IMG/VR virus record: IMGVR_UViG_3300032288_005579
Reading direction: 5' to 3' (one strand)
DNA length: 64,000 bases
Origin: a virus
The position numbers were made by a program, and so were the translations under genes. The notes beneath the pieces are model-generated. The model saw only the letters and a list, made by a program, of their open reading frames with translations, ran no database searches and was not told the origin of the DNA. Shown here piece by piece: positions 2,584 to 10,713 of this stretch. The stretch's first letter is position 1; each line of letters starts with the position of its first letter.

Positions 2584-4359
2584 ATGGCATCAGAAACCTT
2601 GATTTCACCGGGTGTTTTCCTACAAGAAAACGACTTATCGCAGATAACCCAGGGTCCCGTACAAGTGGGTGCGGCCTTAATAGGTCCCACAGTCTCAGGA
2701 GAAGTTAATATCCCCACAGTAGTAACTACCTATTCACAGTACAAATCTAAATTTGGATCTACCTTCGTTTCAGGAGGAAGCGTATTGGAATACTTAACAA
2801 GCATCGCTGCTCTAAACTATTTTGAACAGGGCGGTGATTCACTTCTTGTTACTAGAGTGGCATCAGGATCTTACACCCCTGCCACCGCTTCAATTTACAC
2901 TCAGGATCCTTCAGTAGTTGCCTTTGTGTTAGAAACACTTACGCCTGGGGTTGTAATGAACAACCAATCTCCGGCTTCCTCAGTTGTCAGCGGATCCCTA
3001 CCTAGTGGATCTAACGTCAACGTACGTTGGGAAGTAGTAAGCTCTAATTCAGGATCTGGATTATTCTCTTTGGTAATTCGCAGAGGAGACGATAGCGAAA
3101 CCAACAAAACCATATTGGAAACTTGGACTAACTTGTCCTTGGATCCTAACGAACCTAACTACGTTGCTTTCGTGATCGGCGATCAAACAAAGAACGTACA
3201 ACTCGACGAGAACGGTAACTACTACGTACAGACTTCCGGATCCTACTCCAACAAGAGTAGCTACGTCAGAGTCAAATCTGTAGCTTCTAGTACGCCTAAC
3301 TACTTCAACAACAACGGCATAGCAAGAACTGAATTCACCGGTTCAATGCCTAAAATAGGTTCAGGCTCCACTCACGGATCCTTTGGAACCGCTGAAGGCG
3401 CGCTTTACGGAGGTCAAATAGTAAACAATACCCCGAACAATCCACTGAACATGTACGAGTCCATACCGAACACTACTTCGGACACAGTGGCCGAGAACAT
3501 TCAGGGCATACAAGCAGCTCAATACAATACTGCTATCAACATGTTAGCAAACAAGGACGCTTATAGATTTAACGTCATATACGCTCCTGGTATAAATTCT
3601 CAAAACGCGCCTTCTCAAATCTCTAACATACTTGCTCTCGCTTCCGATAGAGGCGATGCAATCGCAGTCGTTGACATGGTGTCTTACGCTCAAAGCAAGA
3701 CACAAGTCATCACGCAAGCCGCTAACTACGACAACTCATACGGAGCGACCTACTGGCCTTGGGTACAAATCAGAAGCCGCGAAACAGGTAAACTGAACTT
3801 CGTACCTGCTTCCACACTGATCCCTGCCATCTACGAGTACAATGATAAGGTTGCAGCAGAATGGTTCGCGCCTGCCGGTTTGAATCGTGGTGGTATGGCA
3901 ACGGTAATCCAGCCTGAGCGCAGAGTGAGCGTAGAAGACAGGAACTTCCTGTATCAAGGCAAAGTGAACCCGATCGCGGTGTTCCCTGGAGTTGGTACGG
4001 TTGTTTACGGTCAAAAGACTCTCCAGTCCAAGGCATCCGCCCTCGACAGAGTTAACGTACGCAGATTGCTCATCTCTTTGAAGAGCTACATCGGTCAAGT
4101 CGGTGAGAGCCTAGTATTCGAACCCAATACCCAGGTAACTCGTAATAGATTCTTGAACCAGGTTAACCCTTATCTAGAGTACGTACAACAGCGTCAGGGT
4201 CTCTATGCGTTCCAAGTGACTATGGACGAGAGCAACAACACGCCTGATGTAATCGATCGCAACCAACTCGTTGGTACAATCTACCTGCAGCCTACAAGAG
4301 CGGCCGAATTCATCTACCTGAACTTCAACGTGCTGCCGACTGGAACAAGCTTTTCTTAA
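2584..4359 (+). CDS. Tail sheath protein (T4 gp18-like)
   Basis: SPGVFLQENDLS start, WFAPAGLNRG, GQKTLQ...ALDRVNVRRLL, FEPNTQVTR, IYLQPTRAAEFIYLNF. Confidence 0.95.
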   Translation: MASETLISPGVFLQENDLSQITQGPVQVGAALIGPTVSGEVNIPTVVTTYSQYKSKFGSTFVSGGSVLEYLTSIAALNYFEQGGDSLLVTRVASGSYTPATASIYTQDPSVVAFVLETLTPGVVMNNQSPASSVVSGSLPSGSNVNVRWEVVSSNSGSGLFSLVIRRGDDSETNKTILETWTNLSLDPNEPNYVAFVIGDQTKNVQLDENGNYYVQTSGSYSNKSSYVRVKSVASSTPNYFNNNGIARTEFTGSMPKIGSGSTHGSFGTAEGALYGGQIVNNTPNNPLNMYESIPNTTSDTVAENIQGIQAAQYNTAINMLANKDAYRFNVIYAPGINSQNAPSQISNILALASDRGDAIAVVDMVSYAQSKTQVITQAANYDNSYGATYWPWVQIRSRETGKLNFVPASTLIPAIYEYNDKVAAEWFAPAGLNRGGMATVIQPERRVSVEDRNFLYQGKVNPIAVFPGVGTVVYGQKTLQSKASALDRVNVRRLLISLKSYIGQVGESLVFEPNTQVTRNRFLNQVNPYLEYVQQRQGLYAFQVTMDESNNTPDVIDRNQLVGTIYLQPTRAAEFIYLNFNVLPTGTSFS

Positions 4360-4576: not shown

Positions 4577-5062
4577 ATGCCTGTATTAGATCCTTCAGAA
4601 ATAATGTTTACCGCGTTCGAACCCATAGTTCAGAACAGGTTCGTATTTTACATCGACGGTATTCCGTCCTTCATCATAAAGAAGGCCGATGCCCCGGGCG
4701 TAGACCAGGGCGAAATCAAGATCGACCACATCAACGTATACCGTAAGATCAAAGGTAAGGCGATGTGGAGGGATCTCGTACTGCAACTCTACAACCCCGT
4801 AACCCCTTCCGGCCAACAGGCTGTGATGGAATGGGTTCGCCTGCATCACGAATCCGTAACCGGTCGCGATGGCTACTCCGACTTCTACAAAAAGGACTGC
4901 AGCATGAATATTCTGGGTCCCGTCGGTGACATCGTTTCCGAGTGGATCGTTAAAGGCGCTTTCATTAAAGCTACGAACTTCGGATCCTACGACTGGTCAA
5001 ACACCGAGACATCCATCTTGGAATTAACTCTCGGCATGGATTACTGCATACTCAACTTCTAA
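4577..5062 (+). CDS. Tail tube protein (T4 gp19-like)
   Basis: 161 aa directly after the sheath; FEPIVQNRF, IDHINVYRKIKGK, EWIVKGAFI; follows a TATTTATA motif. Confidence 0.9.
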   Translation: MPVLDPSEIMFTAFEPIVQNRFVFYIDGIPSFIIKKADAPGVDQGEIKIDHINVYRKIKGKAMWRDLVLQLYNPVTPSGQQAVMEWVRLHHESVTGRDGYSDFYKKDCSMNILGPVGDIVSEWIVKGAFIKATNFGSYDWSNTETSILELTLGMDYCILNF

Positions 5063-5085: not shown

Positions 5086-5110
5086 AAACCCCTCTTTTGA
5101 GGGGTTTTTT
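5086..5110 (+). terminator. Rho-independent terminator after the tail tube gene
   Basis: AAACCCCTC-TTTT-GAGGGGTTT followed by a T run. Confidence 0.85.
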
Positions 5111-5155
5111 ATTGCGTAAAAGTGAAGTACGCATATATTTATAATTAAATAAGTC

Positions 5156-6112
5156 ATGACAGTCTATCATCTGGAAAACGTAAGTTATCTCAAAAAGACT
5201 TGGGATGTCGTATTTGCAGAGCTTGTTAAACACCTAAAAAACAAACACAGCGCAAAAGTAGTATACGATGGAAACACTCCAGATATAGAGCGTACTTTGT
5301 ACATTCCTGAATTGAATTACCAAATGAAGGACTGTGAATTGGTTATATACGACGAACACAAGGACTCCTTCAAAGCCATAAGTTTCAGCGAACACAAGAC
5401 AAACATTTGGAACGCTTTCGAAAAACGCAACAACAAGAACGATCTACTGCTAATAACCCAGTTCTACGATTGGTTTAATAAAGAGTGCGAAACTGGTGAA
5501 TTCAAACACGATTTGTCTCACTGTAAATTCTCGGTAGGTTCTACAGTATTTTATCCTCTCTGGACAAATATAGACTACGAAGAAATATACAGTAGAAGAA
5601 AGGCCAAGAAACCAGAGGAGTTTGTGGATAAAATGTTCATGTTATTTGGTACCCACAGATCTGATCCTTTTGAATTGTCAAAGCGGGGATATCTAAACGA
5701 AATGGTGGGGTTTTTAGAACAACCGGAATACTTCGATGCTCTAATAAATCACAAAGTTGGTCTATCCATAGCCACAGTAGCAGATTTTTGTTATCGTGAC
5801 ATAGAATACATGGCAATAGGAATGCCTTACATACGAGTGGAATACATAAATGAGTTCGATCCCCCGTTGATTCCGAATTTTCACTACGTTTCTATAGACA
5901 GAGAGAAGAACGGATTACCCCATAATTCGGGTTTAGATAGGGAAGGCAGCGAAAAGCACGTAGAAGCCTATATAAAAAGATTTTTAGAGGTGAAAGAAGA
6001 CACCGCGTTTTTAGAATTTGTGGCTAATAACGCTAGGGAATACTACGTTAAGTACTGCAGTCCAAAAAATAGGATACCGCACTTGCTAAATCTTCTTAGA
6101 ATCAGAGATTGA
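5156..6112 (+). CDS. GT-B-like (CgeB/Glyco_trans_1_2-like) putative glycosyltransferase
   Basis: C-terminal YFDALINHKVGLSIATVADFCYRDIEYMAIGMP resembles the GT-B nucleotide-sugar-binding segment. Confidence 0.5.
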   Translation: MTVYHLENVSYLKKTWDVVFAELVKHLKNKHSAKVVYDGNTPDIERTLYIPELNYQMKDCELVIYDEHKDSFKAISFSEHKTNIWNAFEKRNNKNDLLLITQFYDWFNKECETGEFKHDLSHCKFSVGSTVFYPLWTNIDYEEIYSRRKAKKPEEFVDKMFMLFGTHRSDPFELSKRGYLNEMVGFLEQPEYFDALINHKVGLSIATVADFCYRDIEYMAIGMPYIRVEYINEFDPPLIPNFHYVSIDREKNGLPHNSGLDREGSEKHVEAYIKRFLEVKEDTAFLEFVANNAREYYVKYCSPKNRIPHLLNLLRIRD

Positions 6113-6152
6113 AAATTTCACATACATATATTTATAATAAACAAAACCATTT

Positions 6153-6917
6153 ATGTCAGACAAAAAATACGCAGTTCCAACAGAAATTATTGACCTACCT
6201 TCAAAGGGTGTGTTGTATTCGCCTTTAAATCCGTTGTGTTCGGGTTCGGTCGAAATGAAATACATGACCGCCAAAGAGGAAGACATCCTAACGAACGTTA
6301 ACCTACTTAGACAGGGGTTAGCCATAGAAACGGTGTTGAAATCGCTCATAGTCACAAAGATAAACTACGACGAATTGATCATTGGCGACAGAAACGCGCT
6401 GTTAGTCGCGGCACGCATCCTCGCTTACGGTAAGGACTACGCTTTCGAATACGTAAATCCCAATACTAACGAAAAAGAGTTGGTTACGGTGGATCTGTCA
6501 GAACTAAAATACAAAGAGATCGACTTTGACAAACTCAACGACAAGAACGAGTTCACATTCAAGTTGCCAAAAACGGACAATGTGGTTACCTATAAGATTT
6601 TGACCGTGGCCGACGATAAGGCGATAGAACGTGAAGCAAAGAGCATGAAGAAAGCCCTCAACACAGACGTGGGTATGATGAGTTTAAGGCTCAAGAAGCA
6701 GATAACTTCCGTAAACGGTGACAGCTCAGAGAAAGCCATTCGTGAATTCGTTGACGGTGGGCACCTTCTAGCTATGGATTCCAGAGCCTTAAGAACTGAC
6801 ATGACAAGAAACACACCGGACATCGATATGACATCGCTGGTGACTCTCAGGGACGGTTCTGACCTAAACGTCGATATTCCTATTACTGCAGAATTCTTCT
6901 TCCCAGGTACTGAATAA
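6153..6917 (+). CDS. Baseplate hub assembly protein / tail assembly chaperone (T4 gp26-like)
   Basis: PTEIIDLPSKG, MKYMTAKEEDILT, GDRNALLVAARILAYG, DSRALR; lies between tube and tape measure. Confidence 0.8.
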   Translation: MSDKKYAVPTEIIDLPSKGVLYSPLNPLCSGSVEMKYMTAKEEDILTNVNLLRQGLAIETVLKSLIVTKINYDELIIGDRNALLVAARILAYGKDYAFEYVNPNTNEKELVTVDLSELKYKEIDFDKLNDKNEFTFKLPKTDNVVTYKILTVADDKAIEREAKSMKKALNTDVGMMSLRLKKQITSVNGDSSEKAIREFVDGGHLLAMDSRALRTDMTRNTPDIDMTSLVTLRDGSDLNVDIPITAEFFFPGTE

Positions 6918-6926
6918 ACAGCACCC

Positions 6927-7271
6927 ATGAAGGGCTTTTCCTATTATACCAGTCCACTGTTTCCTGGACCGGAATACAGAGCCGTGTTCATGAACGAGTG
7001 TTTTGAACTTGTTTACCACGGTCAGGGAGGTTTCACTTGGTACGATGTATGGAATATGCCGGTGAAGCACAGGAAGTTCAATCTAAAGAAGATACAGGAA
7101 TTCTTAGACAAGGTACAAGAGGAACGAGACGGAAAGAACCAGAAGCTCACTGAAAGGAGCGATTTTTCAAAATTGATTCCCCAAGAGGTTGCTAAAGCTG
7201 CGCAAAAGAGGCAACAAGACCGGGAATATATAGCTAAAGCGGGATCAAAAACCTCAACCAAAAAGCCTTAA
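6927..7271 (+). CDS. Second tail assembly chaperone segment (gp51-like / 'T' part of a G-GT pair)
   Basis: PEYRAVF...ELVYHGQGGFTWYDVWNMP...RKFNLKKI; same frame as the upstream gene and immediately before the tape measure. Confidence 0.7.
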   Translation: MKGFSYYTSPLFPGPEYRAVFMNECFELVYHGQGGFTWYDVWNMPVKHRKFNLKKIQEFLDKVQEERDGKNQKLTERSDFSKLIPQEVAKAAQKRQQDREYIAKAGSKTSTKKP

Positions 7272-7305
7272 AGCGTCATATTTATTTGTATAACGCAAAT
7301 TTTCC

Positions 7306-10300
7306 GTGGCAGTAGACAACGAAAAACCCGAACAACCGAAATCAGCGGCGGCACCTTCCCAAAAGGAGGATGCTCAAGATTTTTTAAAAGTTTTCAAGGA
7401 ACGATTAGGAATCGAACGCTCAATTCGTGACGAGGCCAAGTACAGTATACAAAACCTAGAAAAACAACTCCAAACAATACAGAAACAAAATGCCAAGTTA
7501 GAAAGTCAGAATCGTGATACGATAAACATAAAGACTATAAATTCCGAGATTCTAAGGAATAAACAGGATTTATACGTTACTACTGCAAAGATAGCTGATA
7601 AAGAGAAAGAGGTACTTAAAGGCGATCCTAAAAAGATTGAGGCATTTAAACAGCAAATGCAGGAACATGAAAAGCTAAAAAAAGCGGAAAAAAAGGCAGA
7701 AGACGAACTTAGAGAATCCGCAATAAAAGTAGAATCAGAAAAAAAGAAGTTAGGTGCAGCAGGCGCTGCTCAAGCAGAAAAAACGTTCTCTAAACAAAAA
7801 CAATTAACACAGGATCTAGCTTTTGCTGAGAGCGAAGCCAAAAGAAAGATAGAACTCGCAGATCAAAATCGAACGAAGGATATAGAGGCCACTGAAAAAG
7901 AGATGGCCTCGAAAAAAACAGATCTGCAAAAGAAAGTGCACCAAGATGGAGTAAAATTAGCGTCACTAGATAGATTACTAGATAATAAGAACCTGTCAGA
8001 GCAAAAAAGAGAAAAATTAGAAAGACAGAAATACGAGATAGAGAGTAACAAAAAACAAAGCGAAAACGAACTATCCCTAATAGACGAAACAAAGAAAAAG
8101 CGTCTAGACGCGTTTGAAGCAATACGAGCAAGAGAAGTAGAAGACGCACAATCCACCCTACAAACAACACAGAAGAACATAGCCGAAGAACAAAAGTTAC
8201 TTCAAGAAAATTTAACTGACGGAGAAAAAGCATACCAACAATCGTTAGAAACGATGGATGCGAAGCAGCAACAGCTTGATATCGCGAAGGACCAGTCACA
8301 GTTGAATTTAGATTCCATGGATGAAGAGGCTTTGACTCTTGCTGCGCTACAAAAACAAAAAGACGTAGAAGAAGCTCAGTTAGCAATTAACGAGAAGAGA
8401 AAACAACAAGAAGTTGAAGTCAGTGATACACTGGGTCTTACGGGAACATTAGCTCAAAAATTCACTGAAAAACTTGGAGTCGGAGAAGGCGTTTACAACG
8501 CAATGACCGAAAAGGCCCGTCAACTTGTAGAAGAGCAAGAAAAGAGCGGTAAAAAAATGGGACTCCTATCCAGCAGGTGGGAGGTTCTTAAAGCTGGTAT
8601 CAAGGCCGCGGGTCAAAATCTTAGAGACATGTGGAACGATCCCGTAGCAAGAGCTGCTATATTGGCAGGGATATTGAAGACCGCGTGGAACGGACTGCGC
8701 GCAGGATTCGATAAAGTCGGAGCTGCGGCTGCCGGCGCAGGAAACATGTTGAAGAAGATGTCTTCGGACTCAGCTTCAGTGTTCTCAGACCTAGCGAAAC
8801 CCGCTTTGGACATAGTAAGTAAGATACCGATGGTGGGTGGATTGATATCGGGAGTTTTAAGCGGTATCATAGCGGTAGTCGACATGGTCACGGGCATGAA
8901 CGATGCCCTGATAAAGACGGGAAGGACTCTCGGAATGACCTACGAACAGACTAAAGCGTTAAACCATCAATTCCAAAACTTTTCGGCTTCCTCTGGGGAC
9001 ATATTCAATAACTCCAAAAAACTTTTAGAGAGCTACGGAGAAATTTCTAAAGAGTTGGGAGTTATAACAACTCTGTCTAACCAAGATCTCACTACAAACA
9101 TAAAACTAAGAGATCTAGCGGGATTGGACGTCCAGACCCGTACGAAGTTGATGACCATCGCAAAGACGTCTGGAAAGGATGTACAAACGCTGACTTCCAA
9201 CATACTTGCTCAAACAACGGCTCTTCAAAAACAGACGGGAATACAACTGAACAATCAAAAAGTTCTAGCTGAAGTGACAAAACTGTCAGGCGTTCTAGGG
9301 TTACAGTTCTCAAAGTTCCCAGAGAAGATAACCGCTGCATACGTACAGATGAAGGCTTTGGGAATGGAACTCACTTCTCTTGATCAAAAAGCCGACGGAT
9401 TCTTAAATTTCCAAGACAGTATACAAAAAGAATTCGAAGCACAGTTGTTGACAGGAAAGGATCTCAATCTCATGAAGGTTCGTGAGTTGATGTTGAACAA
9501 CAAGATAGCGGATGCAGGACTTTTAATTGCCAAACAAGTGGGAAGCTCGAAAGACTTCCTAAAGATGAATAGGTTGGAAGCGCAGTCGTACGCCGCAGCC
9601 ATGGAAATGACTAGAGACGAAGTCGCTAACATGCTTAGAGATCAAGAGGCCATGGCGGCTTTTGGAGCTAATAGTACTAAGGAAGTGCAAAAACAGGTCG
9701 AATTGTTAAGACAACAGGGTAAAGAACACGAAGCTATTGCCAAATTAGGAAGTAGAGAGGCTTACGATGCTATGACTAAGGCCACTTTACAAGAAAAGAT
9801 CGCTGCATTCATAGAGAAGATAAAACAGTCTCTTGCCGATTTCGTAGAGAGAACGGGATTGATCGAAAAAATCGAAAAGATGTTCAAGTGGTTGGAAGAT
9901 CCTTCGAAGATAAGAGGTGTGATATTCGCTGTTAGAGACGCGTTCGCTGGCATAGTAGATATCATGATGTCCGTAGTAGGCGGAATAATGACTGCTCTTA
10001 GTAAGTGGCCATTTAACGCAGTTAGTTCTGACGAACTTTTTAAGTTCAGAGATATGCAAAAATCCATATCTAAAAACATTCGTAGCGTTGGAACTGAAGC
10101 TTTACAAGACGCAGGACAAGAACAAAAAGGAAAAGACCCAAATAAAAAAGAATTTGCTTTAGGCGGATACACTGGAGACGGACCTAAAAATAAGATAGCT
10201 GGTTTGGTTCACGCTCAAGAGTACGTTGTAAACGCTGATCAGTTAGAAAAATTGGGAGGAGTGGTGAACTTCCAAAAAACTCTTAGTGAATTGTTAATGT

Positions 10301-10713
10301 TAAAAGGAAAACAAGAGTTTGAAAAATCTGAAAAATTAACTCAAACAAGCATCATACCGCAAGGAGATAAAGCGGCAGATAGATCAGTTCAACCAACAAC
10401 CCAAAGCATTCAAAGGGTGCCACAACAGACGCCCGTTCAAATGCCGGCTGATGCTACACTGAAAATAGGCGAAATACTGGCCAAAGCAACCAACCAAAAC
10501 AATCAACCCAAAGTAGATGTAAGTTCAATAGGGGAGATTGTAAAAACTGCGCTTGAAGGAGTTAAGACCGCAATAGCGAACAACAACGGCAGAATGCCAG
10601 AGGTTGTCATCAACTTGGATGGAGCGCCTTTGGCCAAAGCCACCGGTGATAATTTCCAAAAAAGAGGTTTCTCATCTACTAGTACAAGCCCCTTATTTTT
10701 ACAGGGCGTATAA
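7306..10713 (+). CDS. Tape measure protein
   Basis: 1135 aa, helical and A/K/Q/E-rich; position after the chaperones; C-terminal FALGGYTGDG...AGLVHAQEYVVNA motif. Confidence 0.85.
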   Translation: MAVDNEKPEQPKSAAAPSQKEDAQDFLKVFKERLGIERSIRDEAKYSIQNLEKQLQTIQKQNAKLESQNRDTINIKTINSEILRNKQDLYVTTAKIADKEKEVLKGDPKKIEAFKQQMQEHEKLKKAEKKAEDELRESAIKVESEKKKLGAAGAAQAEKTFSKQKQLTQDLAFAESEAKRKIELADQNRTKDIEATEKEMASKKTDLQKKVHQDGVKLASLDRLLDNKNLSEQKREKLERQKYEIESNKKQSENELSLIDETKKKRLDAFEAIRAREVEDAQSTLQTTQKNIAEEQKLLQENLTDGEKAYQQSLETMDAKQQQLDIAKDQSQLNLDSMDEEALTLAALQKQKDVEEAQLAINEKRKQQEVEVSDTLGLTGTLAQKFTEKLGVGEGVYNAMTEKARQLVEEQEKSGKKMGLLSSRWEVLKAGIKAAGQNLRDMWNDPVARAAILAGILKTAWNGLRAGFDKVGAAAAGAGNMLKKMSSDSASVFSDLAKPALDIVSKIPMVGGLISGVLSGIIAVVDMVTGMNDALIKTGRTLGMTYEQTKALNHQFQNFSASSGDIFNNSKKLLESYGEISKELGVITTLSNQDLTTNIKLRDLAGLDVQTRTKLMTIAKTSGKDVQTLTSNILAQTTALQKQTGIQLNNQKVLAEVTKLSGVLGLQFSKFPEKITAAYVQMKALGMELTSLDQKADGFLNFQDSIQKEFEAQLLTGKDLNLMKVRELMLNNKIADAGLLIAKQVGSSKDFLKMNRLEAQSYAAAMEMTRDEVANMLRDQEAMAAFGANSTKEVQKQVELLRQQGKEHEAIAKLGSREAYDAMTKATLQEKIAAFIEKIKQSLADFVERTGLIEKIEKMFKWLEDPSKIRGVIFAVRDAFAGIVDIMMSVVGGIMTALSKWPFNAVSSDELFKFRDMQKSISKNIRSVGTEALQDAGQEQKGKDPNKKEFALGGYTGDGPKNKIAGLVHAQEYVVNADQLEKLGGVVNFQKTLSELLMLKGKQEFEKSEKLTQTSIIPQGDKAADRSVQPTTQSIQRVPQQTPVQMPADATLKIGEILAKATNQNNQPKVDVSSIGEIVKTALEGVKTAIANNNGRMPEVVINLDGAPLAKATGDNFQKRGFSSTSTSPLFLQGV

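Follow-up and report, generated by a model that had tools for sequence, protein, structure and literature searches.

Fission with junction duplication as the probable origin of two separate tail-assembly genes in a phage whose relatives use a +1 frameshift

In this work we analysed the junction between two neighbouring open reading frames (ORFs), ORF1 and ORF2, that precede the tape-measure gene in a 64,000-nucleotide stretch of viral DNA (IMG/VR record IMGVR_UViG_3300032288_005579; the whole stretch is called the window here). The pair stands where other tailed phages carry the tail assembly chaperone frames G and T, and our analysis indicates that ORF1 and ORF2 are probably two separately translated genes, produced by fission with duplication of the junction and expressed without recoding. 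A sequence-only reading of the window had favoured a 60-nt translational bypass that would join the two ORFs, and had named last among its alternatives a fission by junction duplication in which the T part starts at ATG 6927. It is this last alternative that best fits the conserved ATG, the selected extension that follows it and the existence of split relatives. The features of the junction are as follows.

6153-6917, + strand: ORF1, 254 amino acids (aa), PF12322 (T4 gp26/gp51 family), in the 'G' position between the tube and tape-measure genes
6894-6917, + strand: ORF1 tail FFFPGTE and stop TAA, junction copy 1, counterpart of the 0-frame tail FFFPGSG(L/I)* of relatives
6918-6926, + strand: spacer ACA GCA CCC, 9 nt from the ORF1 stop to the ORF2 ATG
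6927-7271, + strand: ORF2, 114 aa, 'T'-like module, separate gene with its own ATG
6927-6959, + strand: ATG and 11-codon extension MKGFSYYTSPL, in the ORF2 frame, lying within the 'gap' of the proposed bypass
6960-6980, + strand: FPGPEYR, junction copy 2, counterpart of the +1-frame FFPGA(E/D)YR or FFGLTPEYR of relatives
Predicted N-terminal peptide of ORF2: (M)KGFSYYTSPLFPGPEYR, beginning MKGFSYY

From 6891 to 6917, frame 0 reads GAA TTC TTC TTC CCA GGT ACT GAA TAA (EFFFPGTE*), and 60 nt past this first FPG, in the same frame, positions 6960-6977 read TTT CCT GGA CCG GAA TAC (FPGPEY). ORF1 and ORF2 are thus in frame, with only TAA and ACA GCA CCC between them, and matched Glu codons (GAA 6912-6914 and GAA 6972-6974) surround the stop TAA 6915-6917. 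The junction, TTC TTC TTC CCA GGT, contains no slippery run, and the other two frames end early, -1 at TGA 6911-6913 and +1 at TGA 6928-6930. On all these points (coordinates, letters, FPG repeat at 60 nt, matched GAA codons, lack of a slippery heptamer and early stops in both shifted frames) the sequence-only reading was correct. The FPGxE repeat is kept in all four nearest relatives and is more than chance. Two further features of the letters were considered and discarded. TTC TTC TTC need not reflect selection against slippery runs, as TTC is simply the preferred Phe codon here (62%); and a 9-nt direct repeat, TTCCTATTA (6877-6885 and 6938-6946, spacing 61), is exact in the window, absent from the relatives L082, L083 and L085, and probably due to chance.

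The relatives of the pair are informative on its ancestral state. Using ORF1 as the query we collected 80 viral and 80 metagenomic loci, which together with the contigs of the closest proteins gave 139 distinct junctions; a viral scan with ORF2 as the query returned one locus only, and the metagenome scan contained no relatives nearer than those already collected. The alignment of these homologous junctions, which had been put forward as a check on the bypass, shows a split in the window clade and, in 133 of the 139, an ORF2 homologue that overlaps the end of ORF1 and is read in the +1 frame. The overlap always coincides with a slippery run whose synonymous positions do not vary: a run of seven T in TTT TTT TGG/TAC CCT (about 100 junctions), TTC TTT TTT CCC GGG A (about 20 junctions), and the rarer forms TTT CTT TGG, CCC TAG and CCC AGG. 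Because of these runs, FF or FFPG is read in both frames across the site. No ATG, GTG or TTG precedes the EYR...GG...MP motif in the ORF2 frame in 77 of 128 such junctions, where the open stretch upstream of the motif has a median length of 7 codons. The missing start and the short upstream stretch imply that ORF2 is reached from ORF1 and that the ancestral product is a fusion. As judged from these alignments, the relatives use a programmed frameshift of the G/GT type in the +1 (or -2) direction, and the CUU_U, CCC_stop and CCC_AGG variants would argue for P-site +1 slippage over transcriptional slippage. The G/GT framing of the sequence-only reading therefore stands in so far as the ORF pair is the counterpart of G/GT and most relatives recode, but they do so by a +1 frameshift and not by a hop. 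The same arrangement is found in Flavobacterium phage vB_FspM_immuto (MW353176), in Microcystis phage Mel-JY01 (PP395634) and in a 484-kb uncultured phage. In the GenBank records MW353176 and PP395634 the frameshift is unannotated and the downstream ORF is uncalled or called truncated, and our literature search for a frameshift in gp26/PF12322 genes found no paper describing one. Examples of the sites are given here.

L001-L168 (for example L025:3700-3760 and L001:3550-3580), L169:4190-4240 and L170:4230-4280: frameshift sites
Unsplit slippery junction of relatives: TTCTTTTTTCCCGGGAGCGGA

Five distinct sequences lack the slippery run and have TTC TTC TTC in its place: the window, L082, L083/84, L085-87 and L020, with ORF1 identities to the window of 79%, 67%, 69% and 54%, respectively. 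In the ORF1 tree these five form a clade (support 97/93) that is sister to the frameshifters with a T6C3G3A run. Since frameshifters stand on both sides of the tree and include the distant Microcystis phage, the split is derived from an ancestral frameshift. In all five members ORF2 starts at an ATG of its own, 3-9 nt past a TAA stop; the spacer differs among them in length (9, 9, 6, 6 and 3 nt) and in the residues that it would encode (TAP, TVP, FS, LH and N), and L020, L083 and L085 have the same number of nucleotides between FFFP and the ATG. The 11-residue extension precedes FPG(P/V)EY(R/K) throughout the clade. MKGF does not change among the four nearest sequences, whereas its Gly is written GGC, GGA, GGT and GGG, and over the 10 codons after the ATG synonymous differences (pS 0.36-0.90) exceed nonsynonymous ones (pN 0.17-0.25). 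Both observations indicate that the supposed gap is translated in the ORF2 frame, and the N-terminal extension of ORF2 is evidently under purifying selection. The comparison with the sister group also accounts for the repeat itself: there, the same nucleotides encode FFFPG-SG(L/I)* in frame 0 and FFPG-A(E/D)YR in the +1 frame, and in the window the counterparts, FFFPG-TE* and FPG-PEYR, are held as two copies 60 nt apart.

Other split junctions, several of them with a homing endonuclease gene (HEG) or its remains, lie outside this clade.

L023:3772-4347 and L178:1501-2073: homing endonuclease, 191 aa (phrog_314, E 5.5e-8), exactly between the ORF1 stop and ORF2
L172:2340-2500: endonuclease relic in a 161-nt spacer, internally deleted, start codon lost
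L175:1756-2842 and L176:1700-2836: free-standing ORF2 in another branch, near immuto, with frame offsets 1 and 0

L023 and L178 are near-identical. Their slippery run is broken (TTT TTC TTC CCA GGA), the intervening gene in L023 is 576 nt long with its own stops, and ORF2 has its own ATG and begins MDDTYRKILPM-FPGPE(F/Y)R. A further endonuclease (phrog_655) lies at 2154-2927 of L023, just 5' of ORF1. The relic in L172 keeps the N-terminal 19 aa of the endonuclease (12/19 identical, E 2e-7) and its C-terminal Zn-finger, CPHCN...HFxNCK (12/28 identical). In this sequence ORF1 ends FFFPGTEV*, ORF2 lies in a different frame from ORF1, and the start of ORF2, MPKEGFEYIHCP-FFPSLEYR, is clearly homologous to MKGFEYTTCPL-FPGPEYR of the window clade. 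L023 nests among frameshifters in the ORF1 tree, and the position of L172 is unsettled, outside the five-member clade; this pattern fits either a cassette that would have spread by homing or repeated events. L175 and L176 represent an independent loss of the frameshift: their ORF2 has a different helical N-terminus of about 25 residues and no FFGL motif, behind spacers of 7 and 60 nt. The 60-nt spacer of this pair resembles a terminator hairpin. Since no ORF1-ORF2 fusion is possible in L023, L178, L172 and L175, free ORF2 evidently suffices in several lineages, and a free-standing ORF2 probably works.

The layouts, the phylogeny, the selection on the codons of the gap, the HEG and its relic are observed; from them we infer an order of events, a translational coupling and an action of free ORF2, as follows. 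In the ancestor, about 25 nt at the end of ORF1 would have been read twice, as FFFPG-SGI* in frame 0 and as FFPG-AEYR... in the +1 frame. This overlap would have been duplicated in the lineage of the window, one copy staying as the ORF1 tail FFFPGTE* and the other becoming the ORF2 head FPGPEYR, preceded by a new ATG and an extension of 11 residues. A free-standing HEG, inserted at the junction and then deleted, most likely accompanied the split, in a series that would run from the frameshift to HEG insertion with junction duplication, to decay of the HEG, and to its full loss in the window. No endonuclease homologue was found in the genome of the window, whose spacer is only 9 nt, and the past presence of the HEG is here deduced. 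ORF2 lacks a promoter-like motif and so is probably cotranscribed with ORF1; ribosomes that terminate at the TAA would probably reinitiate on this shared transcript at the ATG 9 nt further on, and the product would act as a free T-like protein in tail assembly. As the genes of the window mostly have no Shine-Dalgarno (SD) sequence, the lack of one before ATG 6927 is normal here. Junction duplication explains both the FPG repeat and the colinearity of a hop product with the fusion of relatives.

Three points weigh against fission. The covalent G-T link is held to be functionally important in lambda (PMC5009743), and a free T would have to work without it. In the four nearest sequences a single tRNA could read both the take-off and the landing Glu codon. 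Finally, the two ORFs share one frame in every one of the five clade members despite spacers of different length, as read-through of the stop codon would need; one inherited in-frame state, followed by one 3-nt indel and one shift of the stop, would answer this last point, with a joint chance of about 0.1.

Read-through of TAA 6915-6917 at a low level would give, beside the free proteins, a 372-residue ORF1-linker-ORF2 fusion, and would replace the frameshift in setting the G:GT ratio. We consider this improbable. The in-frame position of ORF2 in the five members, with spacer lengths that are all multiples of 3, is what this explanation would need, and a further point for it is the uniform use of TAA in a clade whose frameshifting relatives mostly have TAG or TGA; yet the in-frame state needs just the one ancestral event and the 3-nt indel, and TAA is already the commonest stop in the window (26/50). 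Moreover, the base after the stop varies (A, A, T, C and A), as do the spacer residues, and no suppressor tRNA is present among the eight tRNAs of the 183-kb genome. In L172, L023 and L178 read-through to ORF2 is impossible, because ORF2 is out of frame or lies behind a 576-nt gene with stops.

According to the bypass, peptidyl-tRNA-Glu would take off from GAA 6912-6914, with TAA in the A site, and land on GAA 6972-6974 to give ...EFFFPGTE-YRAVF.... Several features speak for it: the Glu codons are matched in the window, L082, L085 and L083, with the stop directly after the take-off codon, the product would align without a gap to ...EFFFPGAEYRHTF... of relatives, a weak local hairpin places the take-off codon in a stem, and the phage encodes its own tRNA-Glu(UUC). 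However, junction duplication is by itself enough to produce both the colinearity and the matched Glu. GAA makes up 63% of Glu codons, and the landing Glu is the family-wide glutamate of the EYR motif; as that residue is fixed by the motif, a match needs only an ORF1 that ends in Glu. The window, L082 and L085 have GAA at both sites, L083 has GAA/GAG, and the basal L020 has GAC/GAA, with no landing codon to match the GAC before its stop. The 'gap' holds the conserved ATG and codons under selection, and a cognate GAA at 6929-6931 (within ATGAAG), only 15 nt past take-off, would give a landing out of frame. The take-off hairpin and the long helix are unconserved (z -1.9 to +0.8, no covariation), there is no stable tetraloop of the gene 60 type, SD use is rare in these genes, and the relatives that bear a HEG manage with free ORF2. 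As to the conservation by which the sequence-only reading had proposed to judge the hop, the matched codon is present in the four nearest sequences and absent from L020 and L172, and the stem is not conserved. We conclude that the bypass is unsupported, given the coding gap, the unconserved structure, the unmatched L020 and the HEG-bearing relatives in which no fusion is possible, and we regard it as highly improbable. There remains a small chance, overall, that a minor fraction of ribosomes crosses the TAA by either route, besides making free ORF1 and ORF2. If so, a GT-like fusion would be restored, and the +1 frameshift would have been replaced by another recoding event at the same junction.

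The RNA structures proposed for the bypass were analysed by folding. The pairs CCAGG/CCTGG and AAACAG/CUGUUU of the long helix can be drawn, yet they are not used in the minimum free energy (MFE) fold of 6891-6980, which itself has a z of -1.33 (19 of 200 shuffles fold equally well). No covariation was seen at the helix when the five clade members were aligned, and its full pairing exists in the window alone; the helix is no better than chance. The take-off hairpin of the window is weak (AAUAAA loop, -9.8 kcal/mol, z -1.78), and with it the take-off codon lies in the stem. The relatives fold otherwise at this site (z -0.71 to +0.80), and the consensus fold, in which no covariation is seen, loses the window hairpin. 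A stable tetraloop as in gene 60 was not found at the window junction. The sole pairing that survives in the five-member consensus fold is the following.

6897-6934, + strand: candidate hairpin, UUCUUC (6897-6902) with GAAGGG (6929-6934), around the stop of ORF1 and the AUG of ORF2

Both arms of this hairpin are invariant because both are coding, and there is no covariation. As a hypothesis, the hairpin could couple initiation of ORF2 to termination of ORF1.

Free-standing homing endonucleases are known to leave 'genes in pieces', as in nrdA of Aeromonas phage Aeh1, which is split by mobE. The HEG-bearing relatives of the window resemble this case, with a HEG between the halves of a one-time unit and each half provided with its own stop or start. 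The halves function there by non-covalent assembly, and an association of the ORF1 and ORF2 halves is putative. Unlike nrdA, the ancestral unit here already consisted of two frames joined by recoding, and in the window the HEG is wholly gone.

T4 gene 60 and its MobA cassette (10.1101/2022.08.31.505936; PMC5462505; PMC5009743) also present a likeness, in the matched codons that flank a stop, and in a HEG that split a phage gene, gave the downstream piece a new N-terminal extension and was lost in some lineages ('hit and run'). Two further defining features of the gene 60 bypass, which we took from 10.1101/2022.08.31.505936, are missing: the window clade has no conserved take-off stem-loop or tetraloop, and the 'gap' of the window is coding and holds the downstream start codon. 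The pieces would be expressed separately. The nascent-peptide signal that acts in the exit tunnel for gene 60 follows no sequence rule that carries over to other genes. Gene 60 also has an SD-like triplet 5-7 nt 5' of its landing codon, in an AU-rich setting. In the window the candidate for such a triplet, GGA 6966-6968, starts 6 nt before the landing GAA; it is a conserved Gly codon in a GC-rich context, in a window where SD sequences are rare.

The lambda G/GT-type frameshift (Xu, Hendrix and Duda, 2004; reviewed in PMC5009743) is in the -1 direction, as is that of P2 E/E', and is probably +1 in HSTV-2. The pair studied here has in common with lambda G/GT its position between tube and tape measure, an ORF1 N-domain that resembles the HK97 and YqbN chaperones and, in relatives, the production of a short and a C-terminally extended product at a conserved slippery site. 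It differs in that relatives shift +1 (or -2) on U-runs, CUU_U or CCC_N, that the G part is a PF12322 protein of 250 aa, and that the window has neither a frameshift nor a start-less overlapping ORF, its T being a separate in-frame gene with an ATG.

In a 2016 review of recoding, G-T frameshifting is described as conserved 'except T4' (PMC5009743). The relevant T4 genes are these.

L171:3803-4429, - strand: phage T4 gene 26 (gp26, 208 aa)
L171:4480-5229, + strand: phage T4 gene 51 (gp51, 249 aa, with about 45 extra C-terminal residues)

Both products, which are baseplate hub or hub assembly proteins, match PF12322 end to end, as paralogues encoded by separate genes with no frameshift, and belong to the same Pfam family as ORF1. 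This invites the idea that T4 might devote one gene to its 'G' equivalent and another to its 'GT' equivalent. The C-terminal extension of gp51 was missed by the ORF2 profile (0.4 bits), and the gene order differs. That ORF2 itself is gp51-like found no support: hhalign against T4 gp51 gave a probability of 0.2, as many as 454 of 1985 shuffles reached or exceeded the hmmsearch score of 0.4 bits, and no member of the ORF2 alignment matched phrog_634 or phrog_150.

The gene order (sheath, tube, a 318-aa ORF, ORF1, ORF2, tape measure) is the usual location of a G/GT pair.

2584-4359: sheath gene, 5' of ORF1
4577-5062: tube gene, 5' of ORF1
5156-6112: 318-aa ORF, between the tube gene and ORF1
7277-7285: promoter-like motif CATATTTAT, before the tape-measure gene
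7306-10713, + strand: tape-measure gene, 1135 aa, matching phrog_24 and phrog_1506

The 318-aa ORF has no Pfam or PHROG match; in the relatives L083 and L085 it is missing and the tube gene adjoins ORF1. A blastn search of 5100-8100 against the phage collection gave no match. ORF1 matches PF12322 (T4_baseplate) over residues 30-201 with 37.9 bits (gathering cut-off 24.5) and also matches phrog_150, and its homologues are 251-256 aa long. Its AlphaFold2 model has a mean predicted local distance difference test (pLDDT) score of 89.9. Foldseek with this model against the PDB found no match at E <= 0.001. In an exhaustive structural comparison with 48,161 chains the top three matches all fall on residues 1-96, namely YqbN of Bacillus subtilis (3klu, Z 6.2), 3fgx (Z 5.7) and the HK97 chaperone gp10 (2ob9, Z 4.8), values that also arise by chance. 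These modest structural scores, together with the gene position, support the putative 'chaperone' label of ORF1.

For ORF2 no family was found in Pfam, PHROG and homologue-alignment searches. An alignment of 45 homologues shows a conserved helical core, EYR...GGF..W.MP..R.F..KI, followed by a disordered basic tail, and the AlphaFold2 model has a small helical domain with a pLDDT of about 90 over residues 20-70, residues 1-14 and the basic tail being disordered. A profile search returned 940 relatives, and the best 150 of these 940 are all 50-159 aa long, with no long fused form among them. Foldseek with the model against BFVD returned no significant match, a cyanophage 'Gp51' standing at rank 16 (E 1.1). 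Two weak leads are DUF6760, matched by 8 of the 45 members with a best E of 7e-4, and phrog_32580 'tail assembly chaperone', matched by 3 with an E of 0.021.

As regards expression, a CATAT(A)TTTAT motif, probably a late promoter, lies 18-25 nt upstream of the 318-aa ORF (5156), of ORF1 (motif at 6125-6135) and of the tape-measure gene (motif at 7277-7285), and is absent before ORF2. An SD-like motif precedes only about 5 of the 50 long ORFs of the window, whose leaders are A-rich and whose stop codons are TAA (26), TGA (19) and TAG (5). Such A-rich, SD-less leaders suggest a putative host of the Bacteroidota type, and the nearest isolate infects Flavobacterium. In the 183-kb genome ARAGORN identified eight tRNAs (Met twice, Leu-UAA, Leu-UAG, Ile-UAU, Arg-UCU, Thr-UGU and Glu-UUC); it also gave a putative tmRNA-like gene with the tag AEEISAFTFEDAMAFVGAEEYALAA.

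G000:C1 39915-39988, 78411-78806, 82414-82490 and 102482-106665, outside the window: tRNA/tmRNA genes

For the original idea of a bypass the outcome of this work is deflationary, with no evidence of bypassing. For the large PF12322 (T4 gp26/gp51) family, it places these proteins among the frameshifting tail chaperones, although the review treats T4 as an exception (PMC5009743), and it flags a widespread +1 frameshift that is unannotated in the two isolate records checked. Split genes have repeatedly taken the place of a frameshift in this family, and in one instance the homing endonuclease is still there. The window would thus be a natural experiment on the G/GT paradigm, in which the covalent link has been abandoned and the 'T' module is free, and it opens to test the questions of whether a covalent G-T link is needed and of what sets the G:T ratio.

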